From: Candidatus Latescibacterota bacterium
Lineage (GTDB): Bacteria; Krumholzibacteriota; Krumholzibacteriia; WVZY01
DNA: 64,000 nucleotides
Reading direction: 5' to 3'
NCBI GenBank assembly: GCA_963791045.1
Contig: CAWBQK010000017.1
Span: 32,001 to 96,000, forward strand
Of this stretch, positions 6,880 through 64,000 are shown piece by piece. The first letter of the stretch is position 1. Every line of letters starts with the position of its first letter. The notes beneath the pieces are model-generated. The model did not search any database. It worked only from the letters and a program-made list of their open reading frames with translations, and was not told the origin of the DNA. The translations under genes and the position numbers were made by a program.

Positions 6880-7473
6880 GTGAAAATAAAAGCCGTTAAG
6901 TATCTCGGGTCGTTTGGGGATGCCGGATCGTTTCCTGCTCCTCAAGGGCCCGAGATTGTTTTTTTGGGACGATCGAATGTTGGGAAGTCCTCGTTGATAA
7001 ATTCCCTGGTTGGAGGGCGCCGCGACGTGGCGCGAACATCCAACACTCCGGGAAAAACCCGCACGGCGAACTACTATCTTGTAAACGAAGAGTTCTGTTT
7101 TGTTGACATGCCGGGGTACGGGTATGCCCAGGTATCGAAGAACGAACGGGCACAGTGGACACGGCTGATAAACAGTTATGTGACTGAGCGTGAGGTGCTG
7201 AAAGGGGTCGTTCTTCTTCTCGACATCCGGCATTCGCCCAGCACAGCGGACAAGGAAACCGCCGAATCACTTAGAGAGTCAGGCAACCGTTGTTGTCTGG
7301 TATTTGCCAAGATGGACAAAATCAAGAAGAGCGCTGTAGACAAAAACATCACCGCGCACCTTAAGGGGTTTCCGGTCAATCCGGACACCGGTGTCGTCGC
7401 ATATTCGAGCGAAACGGGGCAGGGAAGACGCGAGCTGTGGGCATGGATATCCGAAAGTTTTGAAGCGGAATAG
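6880..7473 (+). CDS. engB: Ribosome biogenesis GTPase YihA/EngB
   Basis: GRSNVGKSS, TPGKT, DMPGYG, KMDK; GTG start after AGGAGG; conserved position after lon. Confidence 0.93.
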   Translation: MKIKAVKYLGSFGDAGSFPAPQGPEIVFLGRSNVGKSSLINSLVGGRRDVARTSNTPGKTRTANYYLVNEEFCFVDMPGYGYAQVSKNERAQWTRLINSYVTEREVLKGVVLLLDIRHSPSTADKETAESLRESGNRCCLVFAKMDKIKKSAVDKNITAHLKGFPVNPDTGVVAYSSETGQGRRELWAWISESFEAE

Positions 7474-7534
7474 TGTCGTTGTTGGCTTCGCTTCGCTCGC
7501 CCGTTGTTTGTATTTAGAAACTCAGAGGTAACGA

Positions 7535-8677
7535 ATGAACCACCAAAGACTATTTACTCCGGGACCGACAGAGGTCCCGTCGCAGGTTCGCGAGTGTATG
7601 GCGAGACCCCTCGTTCACCACAGAACGGAGGAGTACCGGACTATCCAACGCGAAGTTATCGAAAACCTCCAGTGGTTGATGAAAACCAAGAACCCCATCT
7701 TTCTTCTCGCGTCATCGGGGACGGGTGCGATGGAGGCCGCAGTCAGTAATTTGACGGGTCCGGGGGACAAAGTGCTCGTCACCGCATTGGGTAAGTTCAG
7801 CCATCGTTGGAAAGAGATTGGCGAAGCGTTTGGTCTGGATGTCGTGACAATAGATACGACCTGGGGCGACGCCACGACTCCGGAGCTGGTTGCCGCGGCC
7901 TTCGACGCGAATCCGGGGATCAGTGTTTTGTTCACCACGCATTCCGAGACGTCGACGGCCGTCCTCCAGGACGTCAAATCGATGGCGCGAATCGCGCACG
8001 AACGCGGCGCTCTCATCGTCGTGGATGGAATCACCAGCATCGGTGCGGAGGTTCTCGAAACGGACGCCTGGGGGCTCGACGTGGTGATCGGCGGGGCTCA
8101 GAAAGGCGTGATGATTCCGCCGGGTCTGGCCTACTTGTCGATGTCGCAGGCCGCGCGGGAGAGAACGGAACGCGGTCGGCATCCTACATACTATTTTGAT
8201 TTGAACAAGGCTTTGAAATCGTATGAGGACGGGGACACACCATGGACTCCTCCGATTGTCCATGTGGTAGGTCTTCACAGGGCACTGGAAATGATGAAGG
8301 CGGAGGGACTTGACAACGTCATCGCCCGCCATCAACGCAACGCGGGAGCGACGCGCGCCGCCGTGGAGGCGCTTGGCCTACGACTTCTGTCGTCGTCACC
8401 CGCGAGCTGTACCACGGCGGTTGTTTTCGATGATGGGAACGCGGACAAAGTCCGCTCTCACCTCAACGATGCGTACAGTATTAGAGTTGCCGGCGGGCAA
8501 GCACGGTTGAAGGGGAAGATCGTGCGCCTCGGCCATCTCGGATATTATTTCGAAGCGGACATTCTGATGATGATTACCGCTTTTGAATCAACCCTTCTCG
8601 ATCTGGGTTTGATAGAGAACGCGGGGCGTGGAATCGAAGCGGCGCTAAAAGAATTTCATCGCGCGAAGAAGGGTTAA
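7535..8677 (+). CDS. Class V PLP aminotransferase (alanine-glyoxylate/serine-pyruvate family)
   Basis: LFTPGPT, SSGTGAME, HSETST, GAQKG PLP-lysine, RLGHLG. Confidence 0.92.
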   Translation: MNHQRLFTPGPTEVPSQVRECMARPLVHHRTEEYRTIQREVIENLQWLMKTKNPIFLLASSGTGAMEAAVSNLTGPGDKVLVTALGKFSHRWKEIGEAFGLDVVTIDTTWGDATTPELVAAAFDANPGISVLFTTHSETSTAVLQDVKSMARIAHERGALIVVDGITSIGAEVLETDAWGLDVVIGGAQKGVMIPPGLAYLSMSQAARERTERGRHPTYYFDLNKALKSYEDGDTPWTPPIVHVVGLHRALEMMKAEGLDNVIARHQRNAGATRAAVEALGLRLLSSSPASCTTAVVFDDGNADKVRSHLNDAYSIRVAGGQARLKGKIVRLGHLGYYFEADILMMITAFESTLLDLGLIENAGRGIEAALKEFHRAKKG

Positions 8678-26306: not shown

Positions 26307-27388
26307 ATGTCGATTCTCTACTCACAAACCAGTCTCGGCCCTCTGACGCTACAAAACCATCTGGTCATGGCGACCGATGACGCGCAGCCGCGCAACCGAC
26401 AATATTCCCAACGAGCTCATGATGGAGTACTACGCGCAACGCGGCTCGGCGGGACTGATTATTGCCGAGGGTACGTCGCCCTCACCGAATGGGTTGGGTT
26501 ACCCGCGCATACCGGGAATATTCTCCCCGCCCCAGGTCGAAGGCTGGAAACGTATTACCGATGCAGTGCACGCCAAGGGCGCGAAGATGTTCATCCAGCT
26601 CATGCATTGCGGACGGATTGCTCATCCACTGAACTTGCCCGCGGGGAATCGTGTGCTGGCGCCTTCGGCCGTGGTGGCCTCGGGCGAGATGTTCACAGAT
26701 GAGGAGGGCTATGAAGCCTCATCCGGTGCCGCAGGCGATGACCGCGGAGGACATTACGGCCACGATCGCGGAGTATGCTCAGGCCGCCAAGAATGCCGTG
26801 ACAGCGGGGTTTGACGGCGTCGAGTTGCACAGCGCCAACGGCTATCTGCTGGAACAGTTCATCCGCCCGAATACGAATCAGCGCACTGATGGATATGGCG
26901 GTCCGATCGAGAACCGCGCACGTTTCGTGCTGGAAGTGGTTGAGGCGGTAATTGGTGCTATTGGCAAGGACAAGGTGGGCATCCGGCTTTCGCCATTCGG
27001 CGTGTTCAACGATATGCCGTCGTACGACGCGATGGAGACGGATTATACCTACCTGGCGCAACAACTCGACGCCAGCGGGCTGGTGTATATCCACCTGGTG
27101 GATCACTCGTCAATGGGAGCGCCGCCGGTGCCCGATGCCATAAAGGAAATGTTCCGCACGGAATTCAAGCGCACGTTGATTCTCTCCGGCGGTTACGATG
27201 CCGAGCGCGCTGAAAGCGATCTGGCCACTGGCAAATGCGATCTAATCGCCGTGGGGCGGCCGTTTCTTGCTAATCCCGACCTGGTGGATCGATGGAAAAC
27301 CGGTGCGGCTGTGAACGAGCCGGATATGGATACGTTCTACACGCCGGGACCGAAGGGCTATACCGACTACCCGGCGTTGAAGAAATAG
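26307..27388 (+). CDS. Old yellow enzyme / NemA-like alkene reductase, split by two +1 frameshifts (~26372, ~26710)
   Basis: Reconstructed MAPMTRSR, YYAQR, QLMHCGR, ELHSANGYLL, GIRLSP, GRPFLANPDL, FYTPGPKGYTDYP across three frames; AGGAGG RBS. Confidence 0.85.
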
Positions 27389-49359: not shown

Positions 49360-51086
49360 ATGTTGAAGTTACGTTTGGTCTTGCTGGTGGCGCTGTTGGC
49401 GCTGCCGCTGATTGGCGGCTGCTCCAGTGACGACGGCGATTCTCCGATGGATCAGGGGAGTTTTGTCGTCGGCTCGTCCGCGGCGCCCGTGAATATTGGT
49501 CCCAGTGACATCGTGTTTTGTGTCGATGTCTCGGACACCGTGTCCGCCGATCAGCTGAAGTCGATCGTCGACGCGCTCGGCGCCTGCCTTGCCGATCCTG
49601 ACTTGATCCCTCAGGACGGGACGATATTGATCGGCGCGTATGTGTACGGTGATACGGTCGCACAGCTTGTCGAACCGGGCACCGCCGTCGACGCGACGAG
49701 TTTGAAGGATGTTATTGGGCCGGCTTTCCAGGGGCTGCTCACCGACCGCATTGTTGGTGGAGGCGGAATCGACCTGGCCGGCGCGATGGGAATGGCGCGT
49801 ACCGCACTTGGTGCTGCGACGAACCTGGATCGCCATGTGTTGCTCATGGGCAGTGGCGAGGCCGACGATGAAGCAGGTGCCGAGAATGAATGTACCGAAC
49901 TTAAGAACATCGGCGTGATGGTGTCGGCAATCGGCACGGTTCCGGCAAGTGCCGGAGTCTTTCAATCATGTGCCGTTAATACCGGCGGCTTTCTTGGTTA
50001 CGGAGAGGGAAGCCTGAACGAGGTGTGCGCCGTGGCATTTGCCTACATGCTCCAGGTGGACATCGATCTCGAACCGGAAACAGCCGAATTAAAACGCGGC
50101 GAAATGCACGAAGTCATGGCGATGGTGTTTCGTGCTGGCGACGCTGAAAACTATCCCGAAGCCGGCAGCGACGTTACCTTTATGATCGTCGATGGTCCCA
50201 ACATGGGCGACTCGACCGCAACCGTGGTGACGGATACCACCGGTTTGGCGAAGTGGTCGTACACGGGCGACAGTGGGCCGGGAATCGATTATATCGTTGC
50301 GGAGACTATTCATCCCGGTACGGGAAACATGTTAACGGATACGGTCATGGTCAACTGGCTCAATGAGCCGCCGACCTGCGATGCAGGCGGACCTTATGAA
50401 GTTGTTGTCGACAGCGACAGTGCGTACGTGATGCTCGACGCGACGGCCTCGTCCGATCTCGACGGTGATTCGTTGACATTTCATTGGGCCGTGGATTGTT
50501 CGGACGGTGCGTACTTCGACGATGAGACCGCTGCGATGCCGGTTCTTATGCTCACCGGTGATTGTCTCTGTGTGGATTCGTTGACGGTAACGAGCTGACG
50601 GTCAGTGACGGGTTCGACGAGACGATGTGCGAAGCCGTTGTGAGTATTAATGACATGCGTCCTCCGGTGGTCACGCTTCGGGATGAGCCAATCCGTATGT
50701 GGCCGCCCAATCACAAGTATCACACGATCACGCCCGAGATGTTTGTCGAATCGATCGAGGACGCTTGCGGCCGCCCGCTCGAAATCGACGCATCGGTCAG
50801 GATCATGATCGTCTATAGCGACGAGCCGGAAGATGGTGCGGGCGACGGCAAGACCGTCAATGACATCATTGTCGAGTGTCCCAATGACGTTCAGCTACGC
50901 GCCGAGCGCATGGGTGGAATGATGGGTCGTGTGTATACCATCACCTACTATGCGACGGGAGAAAACGGCGCGAGTGCGGTTTTCGAAGGGGAAGTTGTTG
51001 TCCCACATGATATGTCCGGGCGCGACGTGATGCCCAATCCGTTCGGCGGATACTCGGTCACGCCGGACTGCGGCGACGCGGACTGA
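49360..51086 (+). CDS. vWA + Ig-like/PKD-domain lipoprotein; one gene split by a frameshift near 50590
   Basis: Lipobox IGGC, MIDAS-like DVSDT, PTCDAGGPY..SSDLDGDSLTFHW continuing as ELTVSDG in the next frame; MWPPNHK..LRAER domain. Confidence 0.75.
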
Positions 51087-51147: not shown

Positions 51148-51180
51148 AAAAAGACCCCGGGGCGTTACGCCCCGGGGTCT
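51148..51180 (-). terminator. Intrinsic terminator for the rhodanese operon (likely bidirectional)
   Basis: AGACCCCGGGGCG-TTA-CGCCCCGGGGTCT with a flanking A run. Confidence 0.8.
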
Positions 51181-51216: not shown

Positions 51217-53102
51217 CTACTGCATCGCGTAGACCGGGGTCGCCACGAGCGGGAAGTCGTTTTTCTGCGCGTCGGTCCACTTGTGGGCCGTCAAGTCGGT
51301 ATGGAACAGGTTGTTCGATCCGAACTTGAGACTGTAGGCCTCGTAGCCCAGCATGTTCAGGTACGCGGTGATCTGCGACGAATGCTGACCGGTCCAGCAG
51401 TAGACCACGATCGGCATGTCGGTCGGCAGGTTGGCGAGCATCTCACCCATGCCGAGACTCGCGTACGGGGTGAACTGGAAGGCGCCGGGGATGTGCCCGG
51501 GAACGCCGCTCGTGCCCGTGCCCAAGTAGTCGGCCTCACCGAAGTAGTTAATGACGAAGTAGTCATTCAGGTTGTCCTGGATGTCCGTGTACGAAATTCC
51601 CTTGAAGCCCGCGGCCAGCATGGCGTCGACGCGATCCTCCACGACCGTCGCCCGTTTTCGCCGGCGAGCGTCGGATACTGATGCCAGGCCAGGTTGCCGT
51701 TCTGGTTGGCCGTCTCGGCCACGTGAGATTGTCAGCCACGTTGTTAGTCCCAGGAACCAGCGAGGGTTGAGTTCCACGCGGACATGCCGAAGTTGAGCGA
51801 CTTGACATCTTCGTAGCCCATGAGCTCCAGGGCGATCTTGGCGTGGCCGGCAGCACTGGCCGGAGTAGCAGGCGATGACGATAGGCATGTCGTCGGGGAT
51901 CGTGCCGGTGCCGAGATCGTTAACGATCGTTGTAAGGGTGGAGTGATAGGCGCCGGCGATGTGGCCGGCGTCGTAGTCTGCGATTGCGCGAATGTCGATG
52001 ACCGTATAGTTGGCCAGGTTGTCGTGCAGGGCCGTGGCGGAGAGTACGCCGGGGCAGTCGGCCGTGTCGTTGATGTACGCAGCGCCTGCTGCGGCCATCG
52101 CTTCAAAAGCGGTGGTGCCACGGGGACCGGTTTCGAGCTCGAAGTCGTGCTGCGCATCGTCGGTCCACTTGTGGGCCGTCAGATCGGCATGGAACAGGTT
52201 GTTCGAACCAAACGAGAGGCTGTAGGCCTCGTAGCCGAGCATGTTCAGGTAGGCGGTGACCTGCGACGAGTGCTGGCCCGTCCAGCAGTAGACGATGACG
52301 GGCATGTCCGTCGGAATGTTCTTGAGCATCTGGTCATCGGCCAGGCTTGCGTAAGGCGTGAACTGGAAGCGCCGGGGATGTGACCCGGAACGCCGCTTCC
52401 GCCCGTGCCTTCGTAGTCGGCCTGGCCGAAGTAGTTGATGATGAAGTACTCAGACGAGGTTGTCTTTGATGGAATCGTAGGATTTGCCTTTGAAACCGGC
52501 GGCGAGCATCGCCGAAACCTGGGTGGCAACGATTGTGTTCGCGTCACCGGAAAGGGTCGGAAAGGCGTGATCCGTGAGATCACCGTTGTTGTTGGTGGTC
52601 TCGACGACAAGTAGTTTGTCATCGACATTGTTGTCCCAAGAGCCCGACAGTGATGAATTCCAAGAAGACATACCGAAGAGAAGCGAATACGTATCCTCGT
52701 AACCCATGAGTTCAAGGGCGATCTTTGCGTGACCGGCCGACTGTCCCGAGTAGCACGCGATGACGAACGGTTTGTTCGTCGGGATGGTCGTTCCGACATC
52801 CGTCAAAAGGGTCGCCAGTGTCGAATGATACGCGCCTGCAATATGTCCGTCCAGGTAGGCGCCTTCGGCGCGAATATCGATGACGGTGTAATCTTCGAGA
52901 TGGTCAAAGACGTCCTGCGCGTTGACCACGCCGGGACAGTCCGCGCTGTCATTAATGTAGGCCGAGCCGGCGTCGACCATTACTTCAAACGCCGTTCCCG
53001 TGGTGGGTGGTGTGGTCGTGCCGTTATCATCGTCATCCGAACAGCCGATAAAGGCCACCATCGCGATGGCCAACATGGCCACCAACATCCAGTGTTTCTC
53101 AT
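51217..53102 (-). CDS. Four-domain rhodanese (sulfurtransferase) lipoprotein, broken by several frameshifts
   Basis: Lipobox FIGC; IDIR..Y..GHIAGA and GHIPGA; active-site loops CYSGQ, CWTGQ, CYSGQ, CWTGQ; GAAGGAG RBS. Confidence 0.85.
51250..52990 (-). repeat. Intragenic tandem duplication with a period of about 888 nt (two rhodanese domains per unit)
   Basis: GTCGGTCCACTTGTGGGCCGTCA at 51271 and 52159; protein repeats AYINDxADCPGV and SSQxTAYLNMLGYEAYSL. Confidence 0.85.
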
Positions 53103-53175
53103 TCTATCTGCTCCTTCGCTATGGGCCGTTTGGCCCGGTTGTGGGGCGGTGAGCATCGCCCTCGTGACTTCTGAG

Positions 53176-53202
53176 GCCCGGCGGCGATCTTCGCCGCCGG
53201 GC
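53176..53202. other. Perfect 12-bp GC hairpin between the cytochrome and rhodanese genes, with no U tract
   Basis: GCCCGGCGGCGA-TCT-TCGCCGCCGGGC. Confidence 0.6.
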
Positions 53203-53212
53203 ATTCAAAGAA

Positions 53213-54614
53213 CTATCTTGCTGCGGGGAAATCCTCCTCGATTACCACACCGATGTTGGCATCATAATCCGGCAGTTTGGTCATTCCGTCCTCTTCATAG
53301 AGATCGGACTCTCTGAGGAGGAAGCCGTCCGGACCACTCTGGCGTGTAGTGGCACGCGTCAAAACACGCGGCGTCTCCGACAGTGGTCTGCGGTGTCCAA
53401 CGGAGGATGTTGTGCGGGGAGGCATAAAGCCAGGTCGGTTTGTCGAGGTAACCCGGCAGTGACAGTCCCCAACCGGAGTATGTATCCGGGTCGATCGGCA
53501 CGTGGCGTACGATCGAATAGTCATACTCGGCACGGTAGGGGCTGGCATTTTTCCCGATCTTCAACTGCACGACACTCGGATCGATTTCATAATCGGGCGT
53601 GTCGAAACCGTGACAGTTTGTGCAATTCTTGTAAGGCTGCGAATGACAGACTTGACACTGGAGCTTGGGACCGGAGCCGGTCACGTGGGCCTGATGGTAC
53701 GTGTTCCCCCCGGTTGTTCCGTGGCAGTCCTCGCAACGGGGCATCGTTTTGACCTCGTAGCGGTGGTTGTAATGATCGCCATCGGAGAGACCATCGCCGT
53801 GGATCTCCTCTTTGGTGTGACAGAACTCGCATTTGTAGCCGCGGGAGCGGTGAACGTCAGGCTGGTTGCCTTCGATTTCACCCTTGTAGTCCGTGCCGAT
53901 GCGGCTGCCGTGGCATGCCGTGCATTGTTCGTTCATGTCGGGTGATTGCGGAAACGGTGCGAGTAGTAGGACCCAATCTTCGGGAATCCGCCGCCCACGC
54001 TGTTCGGCCGGCTGATGTGGCACTGTCCACATGTCGTGTGACAGCCGCCGCATCTGCCGTTGTACTGTTCTTCAATTCCCGATCCATCGAAGGCCATACG
54101 CGCGCGAATTTCGATGGCGTTTTTTTAGCCCCACAGGTTCGAATGAAGACTGTTGGCGGTTGCTCGGGCTTCCCTGGTAGGCTGACAGGCCATCTCGCAT
54201 GCACCGAAGGCGCTCGGGTCAGGGACCATGTCGACATGCGCCTCTTCCATCGTGGTGAAGGTGCTGTCGGCCTGGCCGTTGTGACAGCTCTGACATGGCC
54301 CTCTTCCCGTGAACGCTGCTGAGGAAGATGTCACCGTTGTTTCCGGTGATGATGACTTTTTCCCAAGCTTCCAGCTCGGGTACGTCGCCGCCTCAGCCAT
54401 CGTCCATGGCGACAAGCCTGATCGGGGGCATCGATGAACTCCCAAGTGACGCCTTCAAGCTAGACTCACTCGAGTGACACCCCAAACAGGTCGCCGTGGA
54501 GGCGATCGGTGGATCAACCGGCGGGTTGGTCACCGAATCATCGTCGTCTGAGCATCCCCAGAACGCGATCGCCAAAAGAAGAGATAATGCGCTGAGAGCA
54601 AAAAGCTTCTTCAT
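53213..54614 (-). CDS. Multiheme (~10-11) cytochrome c lipoprotein, probable selenoprotein (UGA at 54393-54395); several indel errors
   Basis: Lipobox FWGC; CLGCH, then DDG-TGA-GGDVPELEAWEKV in frame; CQSCH, CGGCH, CGQCH, CTACH, CEFCH, CEDCH, CQVCH, CTNCH, CFDACH and one garbled motif. Confidence 0.8.
54354..54386 (-). promoter_or_regulatory. Bacterial SECIS-like hairpin
   Basis: Starting 12 nt after the UGA: CCCGAGCT-GGA-AGCTTGGG (8 bp, one G:U, G-led loop), with a possible lower GAC/GTC stem. Confidence 0.7.
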
Positions 54615-55258
54615 GCACTCCTCCCTGGTTGCTGCCGACCGTTTCCGGGTGTCAGGTCAAGTCTGAGACCCTTCGCGAAGATCGGCACGTTGTTACAAAT
54701 CACATCGCCTGGATTAAACTCAAAATCTGAAATCTTACTCCATGTATCTACGGATAAGGCGCAGTCCATGACCATCCCAATAAAACAACGGCTGGTGATA
54801 AAAGGGTCGACTTCGATTACCTCTTGGGTCTCGATACGTCGTTCGAGTTCCCGTTGGAGATATGTGATGTAGGGAAGGCGGACTTCCCTGAAAAGAACAG
54901 CCGCGACTGGCCCACTTTCCAAAGAATTCACGTGCATGAGCCGCAATAGCTCCGGGTCGGTTTCGATGAAACCGAGAATGTGTTCGGCAACCGTCGTAAG
55001 AACATCTTCTAATTCGCCGCAGTCGCTGCATTTCTCAAGAAAGTCCGCGATGTCGTGCTGATCGGCCTTCCGGTGGATGACGGCCTCGTACAATGTGATC
55101 TTGCTGGGGAAGTGTCTGTAGATGGCCGCTTCGGTGATAGCGCACGCCTTCGCGATCGAACGGAGCGATGTTCCCGTGTACCCACTCTGGGCAAAGAGAC
55201 GCGTGGATTCGTGAAGAATCTGTTCGCGACGGTTTTTCGGTTTAGAAGCTGTGGCCAC
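54611..55258 (-). CDS. TetR/AcrR family regulator
   Basis: LFAQSGYTGTSLRSIA..AIYRHFPSK; stop overlaps the cytochrome start (ATGA). Confidence 0.92.
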   Translation of the reverse strand: MATASKPKNRREQILHESTRLFAQSGYTGTSLRSIAKACAITEAAIYRHFPSKITLYEAVIHRKADQHDIADFLEKCSDCGELEDVLTTVAEHILGFIETDPELLRLMHVNSLESGPVAAVLFREVRLPYITYLQRELERRIETQEVIEVDPFITSRCFIGMVMDCALSVDTWSKISDFEFNPGDVICNNVPIFAKGLRLDLTPGNGRQQPGRSA

Positions 55259-55277
55259 GTTGCACGTCCGAAAAAAA

Positions 55278-55297
55278 GTTAGTAAGCGATAACAAAC
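55278..55297. promoter_or_regulatory. Candidate TetR operator
   Basis: Imperfect palindrome GTTAGTAAGCGATAACAAAC (14/20 symmetric), about 20 nt upstream of tetR. Confidence 0.4.
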
Positions 55298-55513
55298 ATA
55301 CGCAAGATATCAGCTTGTGAAACATGGCGCAAGCACTTTATTCTATTGCTATTAAATCATTTATGGATTAGGATTGCCTATTAGTTCAGCTGTCTGTCAA
55401 GACAACTCAACCGGATCTTTGCCAGCGGGCGAAGGCACTGTATAATGTGGTTCATTTTTGTGGGTGGTTGTGATGGTTGTTCGGAACTTGTATTGAACCA
55501 AAAGAGGTCTGAT

Positions 55514-62426: not shown

Positions 62427-64000
62427 ATGAGGTTCGAGTTTAAGCCATTTGGTGAGATGACGCCGGAGGACTACGACAAGATAGGCCTCAAGGCCGGTCT
62501 GGAAATCCACCAGCAACTCCTCACTGAGAAAAAGCTGTTTTGCCGTTGTCCGGCCGGCCACTACAGCAACGAGTACGACGCCGAGATACTCCGTCACATG
62601 CGCCCCACGCTATCGGAACTGGGCGAGTACGACGGGACGGCGCTCATGGAATTCAAGACAAAAAAAGAAATCATCTACCGAATCAAAAGCGAGACCGTTT
62701 GTACATACGAGATGGATGATACGCCCCCGTTTATGATCAACGAGCAGGCGCTTGATATCGCTGTTGAAGTCGCGCTCCTTCTCAATTTGAATTTGGTAAA
62801 TGAACTCCATATTGCCCGCAAACAATATCTCGACGGGAGCATCCCGACCGGTTTCCAGCGCACAACCATCCTTGGCGTCGATGGATGGATTCCGTACAAA
62901 GACAGAAAAATCGGGATCACTCAACTGGGTTTGAAGAGGACGCGTGCAGGGAAGTGTCTGATATCGGTCATGAGCGGATTTACCTGACGGATCGGCTCGG
63001 AATGCCGTTGATCGAACCGGTAACACAACCGGATATGCGAACACCCCAGGAAGTGGCGGAAGTCGGCGAAGATGTTGCGCAAACTCGTGAGGGCGACGGG
63101 CAAGGTTCGGACCGGTCATGGCGCCGGCCGGGAAGATGTCAATGTGAGATATGGAGGGTGGCCGAAGAGTCGAGATCAAGGGCGTCCCGAGCCTCGTCCG
63201 CGTGCCGTTCTTGATATACAACGAGGCGATGCGGCAGTGGAATCTTTTGAGGATCCGCGACATCCTTGCCGACCGCGGGATCACGACGGAGACATTTTCC
63301 TCCGCGAGTGAAAACGTTACGCGGGCGTTGTCCGGTGTTCAGTACGCGCCGATTGAACTGGCGCTGGAACGCGGCGAGGAAGCTTTTTGTGTCAAGCTCG
63401 AAGGGTACGCCGGAATACTGAACGAGAAGACGCAGACCGACACAACGTTCGCCAAAGAAATTTCGGACAGAATCCGGGTCATCGCCTGTTTGACGAGTTT
63501 GCCGAATATGGCCCATTCGGGTTTGGCGTCCGAAACGCTGGCGCCACCGCGGCCTGGAAAAAAATCCGGCAAAAGGTTCGTGCAACGGAACGCGATGCGG
63601 TCGTTCTGGTGTGGGGCCATCGGGTCGATGCCGAGTGCGCCTGTTTGGAGATCGTGTCGAGGGCGAAAGAGGCTCTCGAAGGTGTCCCAAGCGAGACCCG
63701 GCAAGCTCTCACCGATGGCACCAACGGGTTCGAACGGATTCTCCCCGGTCCGGACGGATGTATCCGGATACGGATCTCCCCCCGATGGCGCTCAGCAGTG
63801 AGCGCGTGGAAAAAGCGAGGGCATGCATGCCCAAACCACCGTGGGAGAGGGGTGTCAAAGTTACGAGTCGCGATTGGGCTTCCCGACGACATGATGGAAA
63901 CGTTGACGTGTCGCCGAGGGCCGTTTGTTCGATCGATTGACGAACGGACCTTGATGTGGCACGCCGGTTCTACCGCGGCCATGTTTAGCCAACACGCCAA
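62427..64000 (+). CDS. gatE: Glu-tRNA(Gln) amidotransferase subunit GatE (archaeal type); 3'-truncated and multiply frameshifted
   Basis: GLKAGLEIHQQL, KLFCRCP, MRPTLSELGEYD, DDTPP, RKQYLDGSIPTGFQRT, EEDACR, DRLGMPLIE, G.GREDVNV, RVEIKGV, GVPSETR, RMYPDTDLPP. Confidence 0.88.

Follow-up and report, generated by a model that had tools for sequence, protein, structure and literature searches.

What is encoded on the minus strand between positions 55258 and 51217 of a 64,000-nucleotide stretch of a Candidatus Latescibacterota genome (contig CAWBQK010000017.1 of assembly GCA_963791045.1, positions 32,001 to 96,000; hereafter the window), where a list of open reading frames (ORFs) shows fragments? 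We read the gene layout from this list, from a three-frame translation of the minus strand between 54614 and 53210 and from tblastn searches with intact homologues, and found that the fragments are one operon of three genes for a TetR regulator, an eleven-haem lipoprotein cytochrome c with a (very probable) selenocysteine (Sec), and a four-domain rhodanese lipoprotein (Table 1). The Sec codon would be the TGA that interrupts the cytochrome frame, and comparisons across related loci suggest a widespread yet uncatalogued selenoprotein family, that is, a Sec-containing eleven-haem cytochrome with an obligate rhodanese partner. With somewhat more confidence than doubt, we read the operon as a TetR-controlled two-gene enzyme module acting beyond the cytoplasmic membrane, in which a Sec cytochrome would reduce sulfur fed to it by the rhodanese and whose breaks would mostly be assembly errors.

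Table 1. Features of the operon in window coordinates
Feature	Position	Strand	Evidence or remark
TetR-family regulator gene, 215 aa, intact	54611..55258	-	GTG start; PF00440 TetR_N 53.5 bits
Multihaem cytochrome c lipoprotein gene, about 465 codons, one UGA (very probably Sec)	53213..54614	-	translation, tblastn
In-frame TGA, very probably read as Sec, motif D-G-U-G-G	54393..54395	-	TGA conserved in 76 of 80 loci
Hairpin resembling a selenocysteine insertion sequence (SECIS), CCCGAGCU-GGA-AGCUUGGG	54362..54380	-	8 bp, begins 13 nt after UGA
Frameshift 1, one extra base between SVHG and CQSCH	54303..54310	-	boundaries of tblastn high-scoring segment pairs, sequence reading
Haem-3 site, CEMACQ in place of CxxCH	54176..54193	-	translation, tblastn
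In-frame TAA, LWG-TAA-KNAIE	54125..54127	-	directly 5' of A run; E or Y in homologues
Frameshift 2, one base lost, probably AA for AAA, RFR(K)SPDMNEQC	53939..53954	-	tblastn, sequence reading
Frameshift 3, between CFDACHYTPE and GPDGFLLRESDL	53332..53345	-	tblastn
Four-domain rhodanese lipoprotein gene	51217..53102	-	PF00581 45.4 and 75.3 bits; tblastn
Intrinsic terminator, 12-bp G+C-rich stem GACCCCGGGGCG-TAA-CGCCCCGGGGTC, then TTTTT	51148..51179	-	sequence reading

An in-frame TGA in an eleven-haem cytochrome

The cytochrome starts with a lipoprotein signal (…LAIAFWG-CSDDDD) that is followed by the motif of haem 1. Frame 1, from 54614 to about 54303, contains the lipobox (AFWG-C), CLGCH and the TGA; frame 2 then carries CQSCH, a degenerate CEMACQ, a TAA, CGGCH and CGQCH; and after a second shift frame 1 resumes with CTACH, CEFCH, CEDCH, CQVCH, CTNCH and CFDACH, before a third shift leads into the C-terminal 39 residues and the stop at 53215-53213. 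A preliminary description of this locus had joined 54614-53213 into a single lipoprotein of about 465 residues with nine CxxCH motifs, one Cx3CH (CFDACH) and one garbled site (CEMACQ), and had noted about three indels besides the TAA. Translation and tblastn with intact homologues indeed give one gene with exactly these motifs, with frame changes near 54307-54303, 53954-53939 and 53337-53332. Intact relatives have eleven haem motifs (ten CxxCH and one Cx3CH), and in 50 aligned read-through proteins every one of them is invariant, as are the lipobox Cys and G79, U80, G81 and G82 around the Sec position. The window protein is 65-67% identical to an intact homologue of 475 aa (P0002) and keeps 68 of the 69 family-invariant residues, the sole loss being the haem-3 His, which is replaced by Gln at a site with two extra residues.

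The in-frame TGA is very probably a Sec codon, as judged from its conservation. Its context in the window is MDDG-TGA-GGDVPELEAWEKV (the following residues are also given as MDDG-TGA-GGDVPELEAWEKVIITG), so that Sec would be residue 74 in the window or 80 in P0002, out of about 470 and just after haem 1. The earlier observation that a 73-aa ORF ends at this TGA and continues in frame holds in the window translation and extends far beyond it. Close homologues with 54-72% identity were found in four relatives among 41 genomes (this genome and 40 relatives), and the DNA reads D/E-G-TGA-G-G in the window and in all four of these carriers, with an open frame of 349-395 aa beyond the in-frame stop. 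A scan of 185,579 species genomes (one genome per species) revealed at least 554 loci encoding relatives. Among the best 80 of these, which were examined and come from several phyla, 76 have TGA at the aligned column, and since the same codon recurs at the same place in so many related loci, its presence is not due to chance. The remaining four have TGG, CAA, CGG or ACC, and a Cys codon occurs in none of the 80.

Cys does appear at this position among more distant relatives, which speaks to the check at the G-x-GG site that the preliminary description had proposed. A profile search over 1.84 billion representatives gave 1461 matches at E<=0.001 (best 150 listed), and among 267 database proteins (P0003-P0269) there are 42 full-length relatives with a residue at the position of U80. 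Cys is found in 15 of them, nine times in a G-C-G-G context, whereas the others have Trp (six), Tyr (four), Pro, Ala or Ser (three each), Arg or His (two each), or Gln, Met, Leu or Val (one each). Such an interchange of Sec and Cys at one alignment column classically marks a redox-active site in selenoproteins. Some of the Trp residues may be TGA codons under another code, and the residues other than Cys and Sec would reflect either loss of Sec in some lineages or imprecise, low-scoring alignments.

The SECIS-like hairpin downstream of the TGA is conserved as well. In a first register, covering 62 sequences, 95.0% of cells are paired, and in a second one (a 7-bp hairpin shifted by three bases in 15 further sequences) 94.3%, percentages that are inflated by the sorting of sequences into groups according to the register that fits; the 76 TGA loci and the window all fall into one of these two groups. 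Within the first register, pair 20-30 is C-G in 29 sequences, A-U in 26 and unpaired in none, and the switch between A-U and C-G is non-synonymous on the 5' side, whereas the matching 3' change is synonymous and falls in an Ala codon. Both sides are changed in four of seven pairs of the second register, and the covariation score was reached by none of 500 shuffles. In the four loci without TGA, the hairpin is absent from the minimum-free-energy structure.

The organism also appears equipped to decode a Sec codon. The preliminary description had pointed to the Sec machinery as a means of checking its proposal, and tRNA-Sec (66.1 bits; ARAGORN call SeC(tca)), selA (460 bits), selB (374 bits) and selD (373 bits) were all found in the genome above curated cut-offs. 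All four carriers pass the selA cut-off, but so do nearly all relatives (36 of the 41 genomes in total), and the presence of selA is therefore consistent with Sec but not discriminating. The selD gene (contig C6:361456-362382) has one in-frame TGA itself, and its product, selenophosphate synthetase, is therefore probably another selenoprotein.

Partner genes and the breaks in this copy

The rhodanese encoded downstream of the cytochrome has a lipobox of its own (…VAFIG-CSDDDD), so that both mature lipoproteins start with C-S-D-D-D-D. In its gene, a unit of two domains occurs twice in tandem (53100-52129 and 52113-51247), and each copy aligns in tblastn with the whole 321-aa, two-domain rhodanese of a related locus (L012) at 57-58% identity. 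Four domains, as originally proposed, are thus present, and the catalytic-loop Cys is found in all of them (IACYSGQ twice and VYCWTGQ twice). At least five frameshifts that the preliminary description had not spelled out (near 52455, 52368, 51857, 51745 and 51650) disrupt this gene, and the run of A that directly follows the ATG at 53102 probably contains a further one. Synteny with the cytochrome is nearly universal: of the 70 TGA loci with enough flanking sequence, 69 have a rhodanese gene within 600 nt downstream in the same orientation, about 1 kb long where it encodes two domains and about 1.85 kb where it encodes four.

The TetR gene, with its N-terminal helix-turn-helix domain scoring well above the cut-off of 24 bits, is coupled to the cytochrome gene as had been suggested, its stop codon overlapping the ATG start of the latter in an ATGA. 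Of the 69 related loci with enough sequence upstream, 43 have a homologous TetR gene there in the same orientation, essentially within the clade nearest the window, and no operator palindrome was found in 55240-55450. At the other end, the hairpin and T-run of the proposed terminator indeed close the operon, and a consensus terminator scan gave a different but overlapping terminator-like site at 51158-51137. The flanks of ten related loci hold no second universally conserved neighbor; some feature sigma-54 activators, another multihaem cytochrome, unknown proteins of about 630 aa or an AIR-synthase-like gene. Upstream of the TetR gene, a number of loci (L043:14-2838 and 7045-8205, L027:690-2585 and L055:106-2055) encode a multihaem cytochrome of the NapC/NirT-like kind and an unknown protein of about 630 aa, and at L043 a gene of the AIR-synthase family (SelD-like) follows the rhodanese.

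How, then, did this copy come by three frameshifts, a TAA and a spoiled haem-3 motif in the cytochrome gene and still more breaks in the rhodanese gene? The gene itself is real and this copy damaged, most likely by assembly error; for the frameshifts, the TAA and probably also the haem-3 motif, we regard errors of long-read assembly as the likely source. The essential single-copy gene rpoB (contig C5:44991-48769) is found in nine matching pieces that alternate among three frames, which shows that indel errors are concentrated in patches of this assembly. With 21 contigs and 80.9% marker completeness, it combines few contigs and low completeness in what we read as the usual pattern of long-read assemblies with indels, and at least two of the shifts lie in short homopolymer runs. 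Elsewhere in the window, a gene of the Oxidored_FMN (old yellow enzyme) family is split into overlapping ORFs (26377-27385, plus strand; profile positions 22-129 and 135-339). Beside the operon, a 412-aa ORF resembling a VWA-domain lipoprotein (49360-51086, plus strand; N-terminus …LIGGCSSDDGDS) overlaps a 174-aa ORF in another frame, a pair that may be one more frameshifted gene. A gatB-like ORF at 62427-62984 (plus strand) was dropped as an example of a broken essential gene, given that the true gatB is intact on contig C21; the weak GatB_N match of this ORF (profile positions 2-121 of 277) may mark it as a paralog or remnant.

Two other readings would make some of the interruptions genuine. 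If the TGA were a true stop, the locus would encode two products, a lipopeptide of 73 aa with one haem and a protein with ten haems that is translated on its own, and gene callers indeed split the gene there while most database entries begin just after the TGA. We nevertheless consider this very improbable: the frame is kept across the TGA in all 76 TGA-bearing loci, none of which is split there by a change of frame, within the invariant G-U-G-G; the part beyond the TGA lacks a separate signal peptide (a possibility that the preliminary description had raised against itself), though export is needed for haem attachment; and the hairpin after the TGA covaries while Cys-containing relatives exist as single chains. 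Genuine decay in this lineage, with real frameshifts, a real TAA and a lost haem-3 His in an operon that is functional elsewhere, is a stronger contender but still unlikely in our view. About 9-10 disruptions are crowded into 3.4 kb while the neighboring genes for TetR, ADH (370 aa) and Tex (726 aa) are intact; the haem-3 change, a 6-nt length difference together with the exchange of His for Gln, is unlike a typical homopolymer error and a point against our explanation; and none of the 12 genomes of family f1 has a strong match, making loss in the lineage plausible. However, rpoB is equally shattered and the cytochrome has kept all but one of its invariant residues, so that error is likelier than decay; there are, moreover, no large deletions, and several shifts fall into short homopolymers. 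Three sequencing runs, with 5-6% of sampled words, gave short identical contigs at 54589-55031 (TetR) and 52823-53091, and contigs of diverged relatives lie over the rhodanese repeats; in none of these runs did a read contig cover the TGA, the TAA or the cytochrome frameshifts, which likewise counts against our explanation. Just behind 52368, at a point where a base is apparently missing from the window, one diverged contig shows an additional G, but it belongs to a relative and proves nothing.

A family apart from known multihaem selenoproteins

Record titles place the family in Krumholzibacteriia/-ota, Eisenbacteria, Gemmatimonadetes, Latescibacterota, Calditrichia and Phycisphaerae, and the databases hold it mostly as the part after the TGA, unnamed or misnamed. 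No curated model covers the family: NCBIfam searches with the intact homologue gave a single 18-bit match to a DmsE family at E<=10, while the window fragments have only weak cytochrome matches in Pfam and NCBIfam (ExtM, which at 23.8 bits is far from the required 800, and a sub-threshold Cytochrome_C7), and a sequence search of the PDB gave no relevant match. Precomputed Pfam matches on homologues include PF22113 (MtrC/MtrF domains II/IV) and PF14522. Several database entries (P0004, P0007, P0014 and others) bear the JGI name 'thiosulfate/3-mercaptopyruvate sulfurtransferase' despite having only cytochrome Pfam domains, and this name may have been carried over from rhodanese-fused forms. Our literature searches, which did not cover subscription journals, found no description of a Sec-containing eleven-haem cytochrome family. 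The selenoprotein table in the main text of a 2026 review likewise does not list it; this table includes ExtKL, a GSU2204-family protein and a tetrathionate-reductase-family octahaem cytochrome, a Sec-containing member of TIGR04315 (PMC13188914). With entries that are truncated and hypothetical or wrongly named, gene collections thus underestimate how widely several uncultured phyla use selenium and respire sulfur.

An AlphaFold2 model computed from the 50-sequence alignment (pLDDT 81.7, pTM 0.78) has no Foldseek match in the PDB at E<=0.001. In exhaustive structural alignment, it is predicted to be closest to the octahaem tetrathionate reductase OTR of Shewanella oneidensis (1sp3_A; Z 8.9, root-mean-square deviation 4.2 Å over 265 residues, model residues 105-475), with the next match at Z 3.6 and a weak likeness to Mtr proteins at Z 3.4. 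Haem 1 and the Sec loop, within the N-terminal 100 residues, lie outside this aligned core. Besides the His residues of the haem motifs, nine His are invariant in the alignment and a tenth is nearly so, which for eleven haems leaves one haem without a distal His; its sixth position should be open or taken by another residue, with Sec as a candidate ligand or neighbor. There is no invariant Cys in this alignment outside of the haem motifs and the lipobox. OTR shares with our family the nature of a multihaem protein, as a catalytic enzyme that acts on sulfur compounds, but has eight haems rather than eleven and no match at the sequence level (Foldseek E 1.9). The OTR model TIGR04315 (cut-off 375 bits) does not match P0002 at E<=10 and reaches only 18.9 bits in the genome, on another contig. 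OTR is not known to be paired with a rhodanese.

The closest functional precedent is the one already named in the preliminary description, ExtKL of Geobacter sulfurreducens, which is real and, with five haems, indeed has fewer than the protein described here. Now called MccSep (GSU2937-2936), it is a polysulfide reductase with five haems and Sec whose gene neighbors that of the rhodanese ExtH. Its U325, in a D-G-U-P loop, acts together with a haem ligated by Cys239 on polysulfide and, with lower efficiency, on selenite, and the enzyme is essential for sulfur respiration (PMC13510729). The parallels are manifold: in both cases, a multihaem cytochrome c is made by reading an in-frame UGA as Sec from a gene annotated in two pieces, with a local D-G-U motif, a SECIS-like hairpin after the UGA and Cys-type relatives, and it is encoded near a rhodanese lipoprotein and located outside the cytoplasm. 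MccSep, as a proven polysulfide and selenite reductase, can serve as functional model for the eleven-haem family. We nonetheless see analogy rather than homology or membership, because the MccSep model NF040886 is unmatched, the number of haems and the position of Sec differ, and a conserved haem-ligating Cys is lacking. For NF040886 (cut-off 250 bits), P0002 gave no match at E<=10 and the window gene none at E<=1 in a whole-genome search, and the ExtH model NF040901 scored 22.6 bits on the window against a cut-off of 200. MccSep has its Sec at residue 325 in a C-terminal Ig-like domain, whereas Sec falls at about residue 74-80, after haem 1, in our family; it is a soluble periplasmic tetramer and not a lipoprotein; and it occurs mainly in Desulfobacterota and Nitrospirota, compared to other phyla here.

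A functional parallel of another kind is found in the Sud-Psr system of Wolinella succinogenes, in which a periplasmic rhodanese-type carrier feeds sulfane sulfur to the respiratory polysulfide reductase. The combination of such a carrier with a polysulfide reductase is what we propose for our operon as well, but Psr is a molybdopterin enzyme and uses neither haem nor Sec. Psr is also named in the report on MccSep (PMC13510729).

Proposed function of the module and alternatives to it

We infer that the operon serves rhodanese-fed reduction of polysulfide or sulfane sulfur, and this inference extends to substrate, direction, partner contact and localization. SelB and tRNA-Sec would decode the UGA, aided by the hairpin downstream of it. 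The rhodanese domains would bind zero-valent (sulfane) sulfur as Cys persulfides, drawing on polysulfide, elemental sulfur or thiosulfate, and pass it on to the Sec selenolate in the flexible G-U-G-G loop, and the resulting Se-S adduct would be reduced to sulfide by electrons from the respiratory chain that arrive via the haem chain. As for the site of action, lipobox-like N-termini are found in 73 of 76 homologues, 58 of these 73 with at least two acidic residues at positions +2 to +6, as counted with a crude pattern that includes a few mis-picks. SDDDD is the consensus of the lipoprotein surface-export signal of Bacteroides fragilis and also worked in Capnocytophaga (PMC5080379). The CSDDDD of both proteins equals this consensus, and a location of cytochrome and rhodanese on the cell surface of FCB-group lineages is therefore plausible by analogy, though the signal was defined in Bacteroidota and may or may not work in this lineage.

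In a bolder version that we put forward tentatively, the family would be a second, independently evolved class of selenium-haem sulfur reductases: a surface-exposed, OTR-fold eleven-haem lipoprotein of FCB-group bacteria such as Krumholzibacteria, Eisenbacteria and Gemmatimonadota, in which Sec alone would act on sulfane sulfur delivered by the rhodanese. It would have no Cys partner of the MccSep type, and Sec itself may be the sixth ligand of the haem without distal His. If true, this would mean molybdenum-free respiration of extracellular elemental sulfur in these uncultured phyla. MccSep was presented in 2026 as the multihaem cytochrome c selenoenzyme of sulfur respiration (PMC13510729). 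The family described here differs from it in fold, haem number, Sec position and phyla while sharing the rhodanese pairing, and this raises the question whether Sec and haem can cleave S-S bonds without the haem-ligating Cys that MccSep requires.

Several findings weigh against reading the module as a Sec-dependent sulfur reductase. A residue other than Cys is found at the Sec column in 27 of the 42 full-length relatives and in four of the 80 loci, and because these include Trp, Tyr, Pro and others, Sec would seem to be dispensable, or the function different, in some lineages. The hairpin in the window (-17.7 kcal/mol, z -1.72) is not significant by energy alone, since 15 of 200 shuffles equal it. 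Neither a quinol dehydrogenase nor a porin is encoded in the operon, and the flanks of the ten other loci are variable. Finally, MccSep depends on its haem-ligating Cys239 while our family has no conserved free Cys, so that the mechanism of the former cannot simply be copied.

Among the alternatives, a real module with other chemistry is a possibility that we take seriously without favoring it. The protein could be an OTR-like reductase of tetrathionate or thiosulfate, a selenite or tellurite reductase, or an oxidative enzyme that feeds electrons from sulfide or thiosulfate into the haem chain. Its nearest solved fold is that of an octahaem tetrathionate reductase, a family for which the review table mentioned above has a selenoprotein form (PMC13188914); selenite is a substrate of MccSep as well, and His/Cys-haem enzymes such as TsdA and SoxAX oxidize thiosulfate (as cited in PMC13510729). 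NCBIfam, for its part, calls the ext genes of Geobacter a 'selenite/tellurite reduction operon'. However, TIGR04315 is matched by neither the homologue nor the window gene, and the near-obligate rhodanese suggests persulfide or sulfane sulfur, not an oxyanion, as the substrate. A pure electron conduit of the MtrC/OmcA type, in which Sec would be an unusual haem ligand or structural and the rhodanese an unrelated neighbor, appears improbable. Such a role would fit the PF22113 and PF14522 matches of homologues and a lipoprotein with a signal resembling one for surface export, and Sec could supply the ligand of the haem without distal His; yet a linkage to rhodanese at 69 of 70 loci across phyla is unlikely to be chance, and the fold is nearest to a catalytic octahaem enzyme and only weakly Mtr-like. 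Sec is, to our knowledge, costly and almost always catalytic, which further disfavors a mere conduit.

Beyond the operon, the genome carries other multihaem cytochrome genes with some resemblance to the proteins discussed here. Contig C9:59275-61911 (L104) has several weak tandem matches to NF040886, the best with 33 bits against the cut-off of 250 and one with two in-frame TGA codons, which may represent distant MccSep-like cytochromes in the same genome. On contig C15, one gene (254372-254674; L017) matches our family weakly with 39% identity over 113 aa, and another (260140-261363; L103) is the source of the weak 18.9-bit match to the OTR model.

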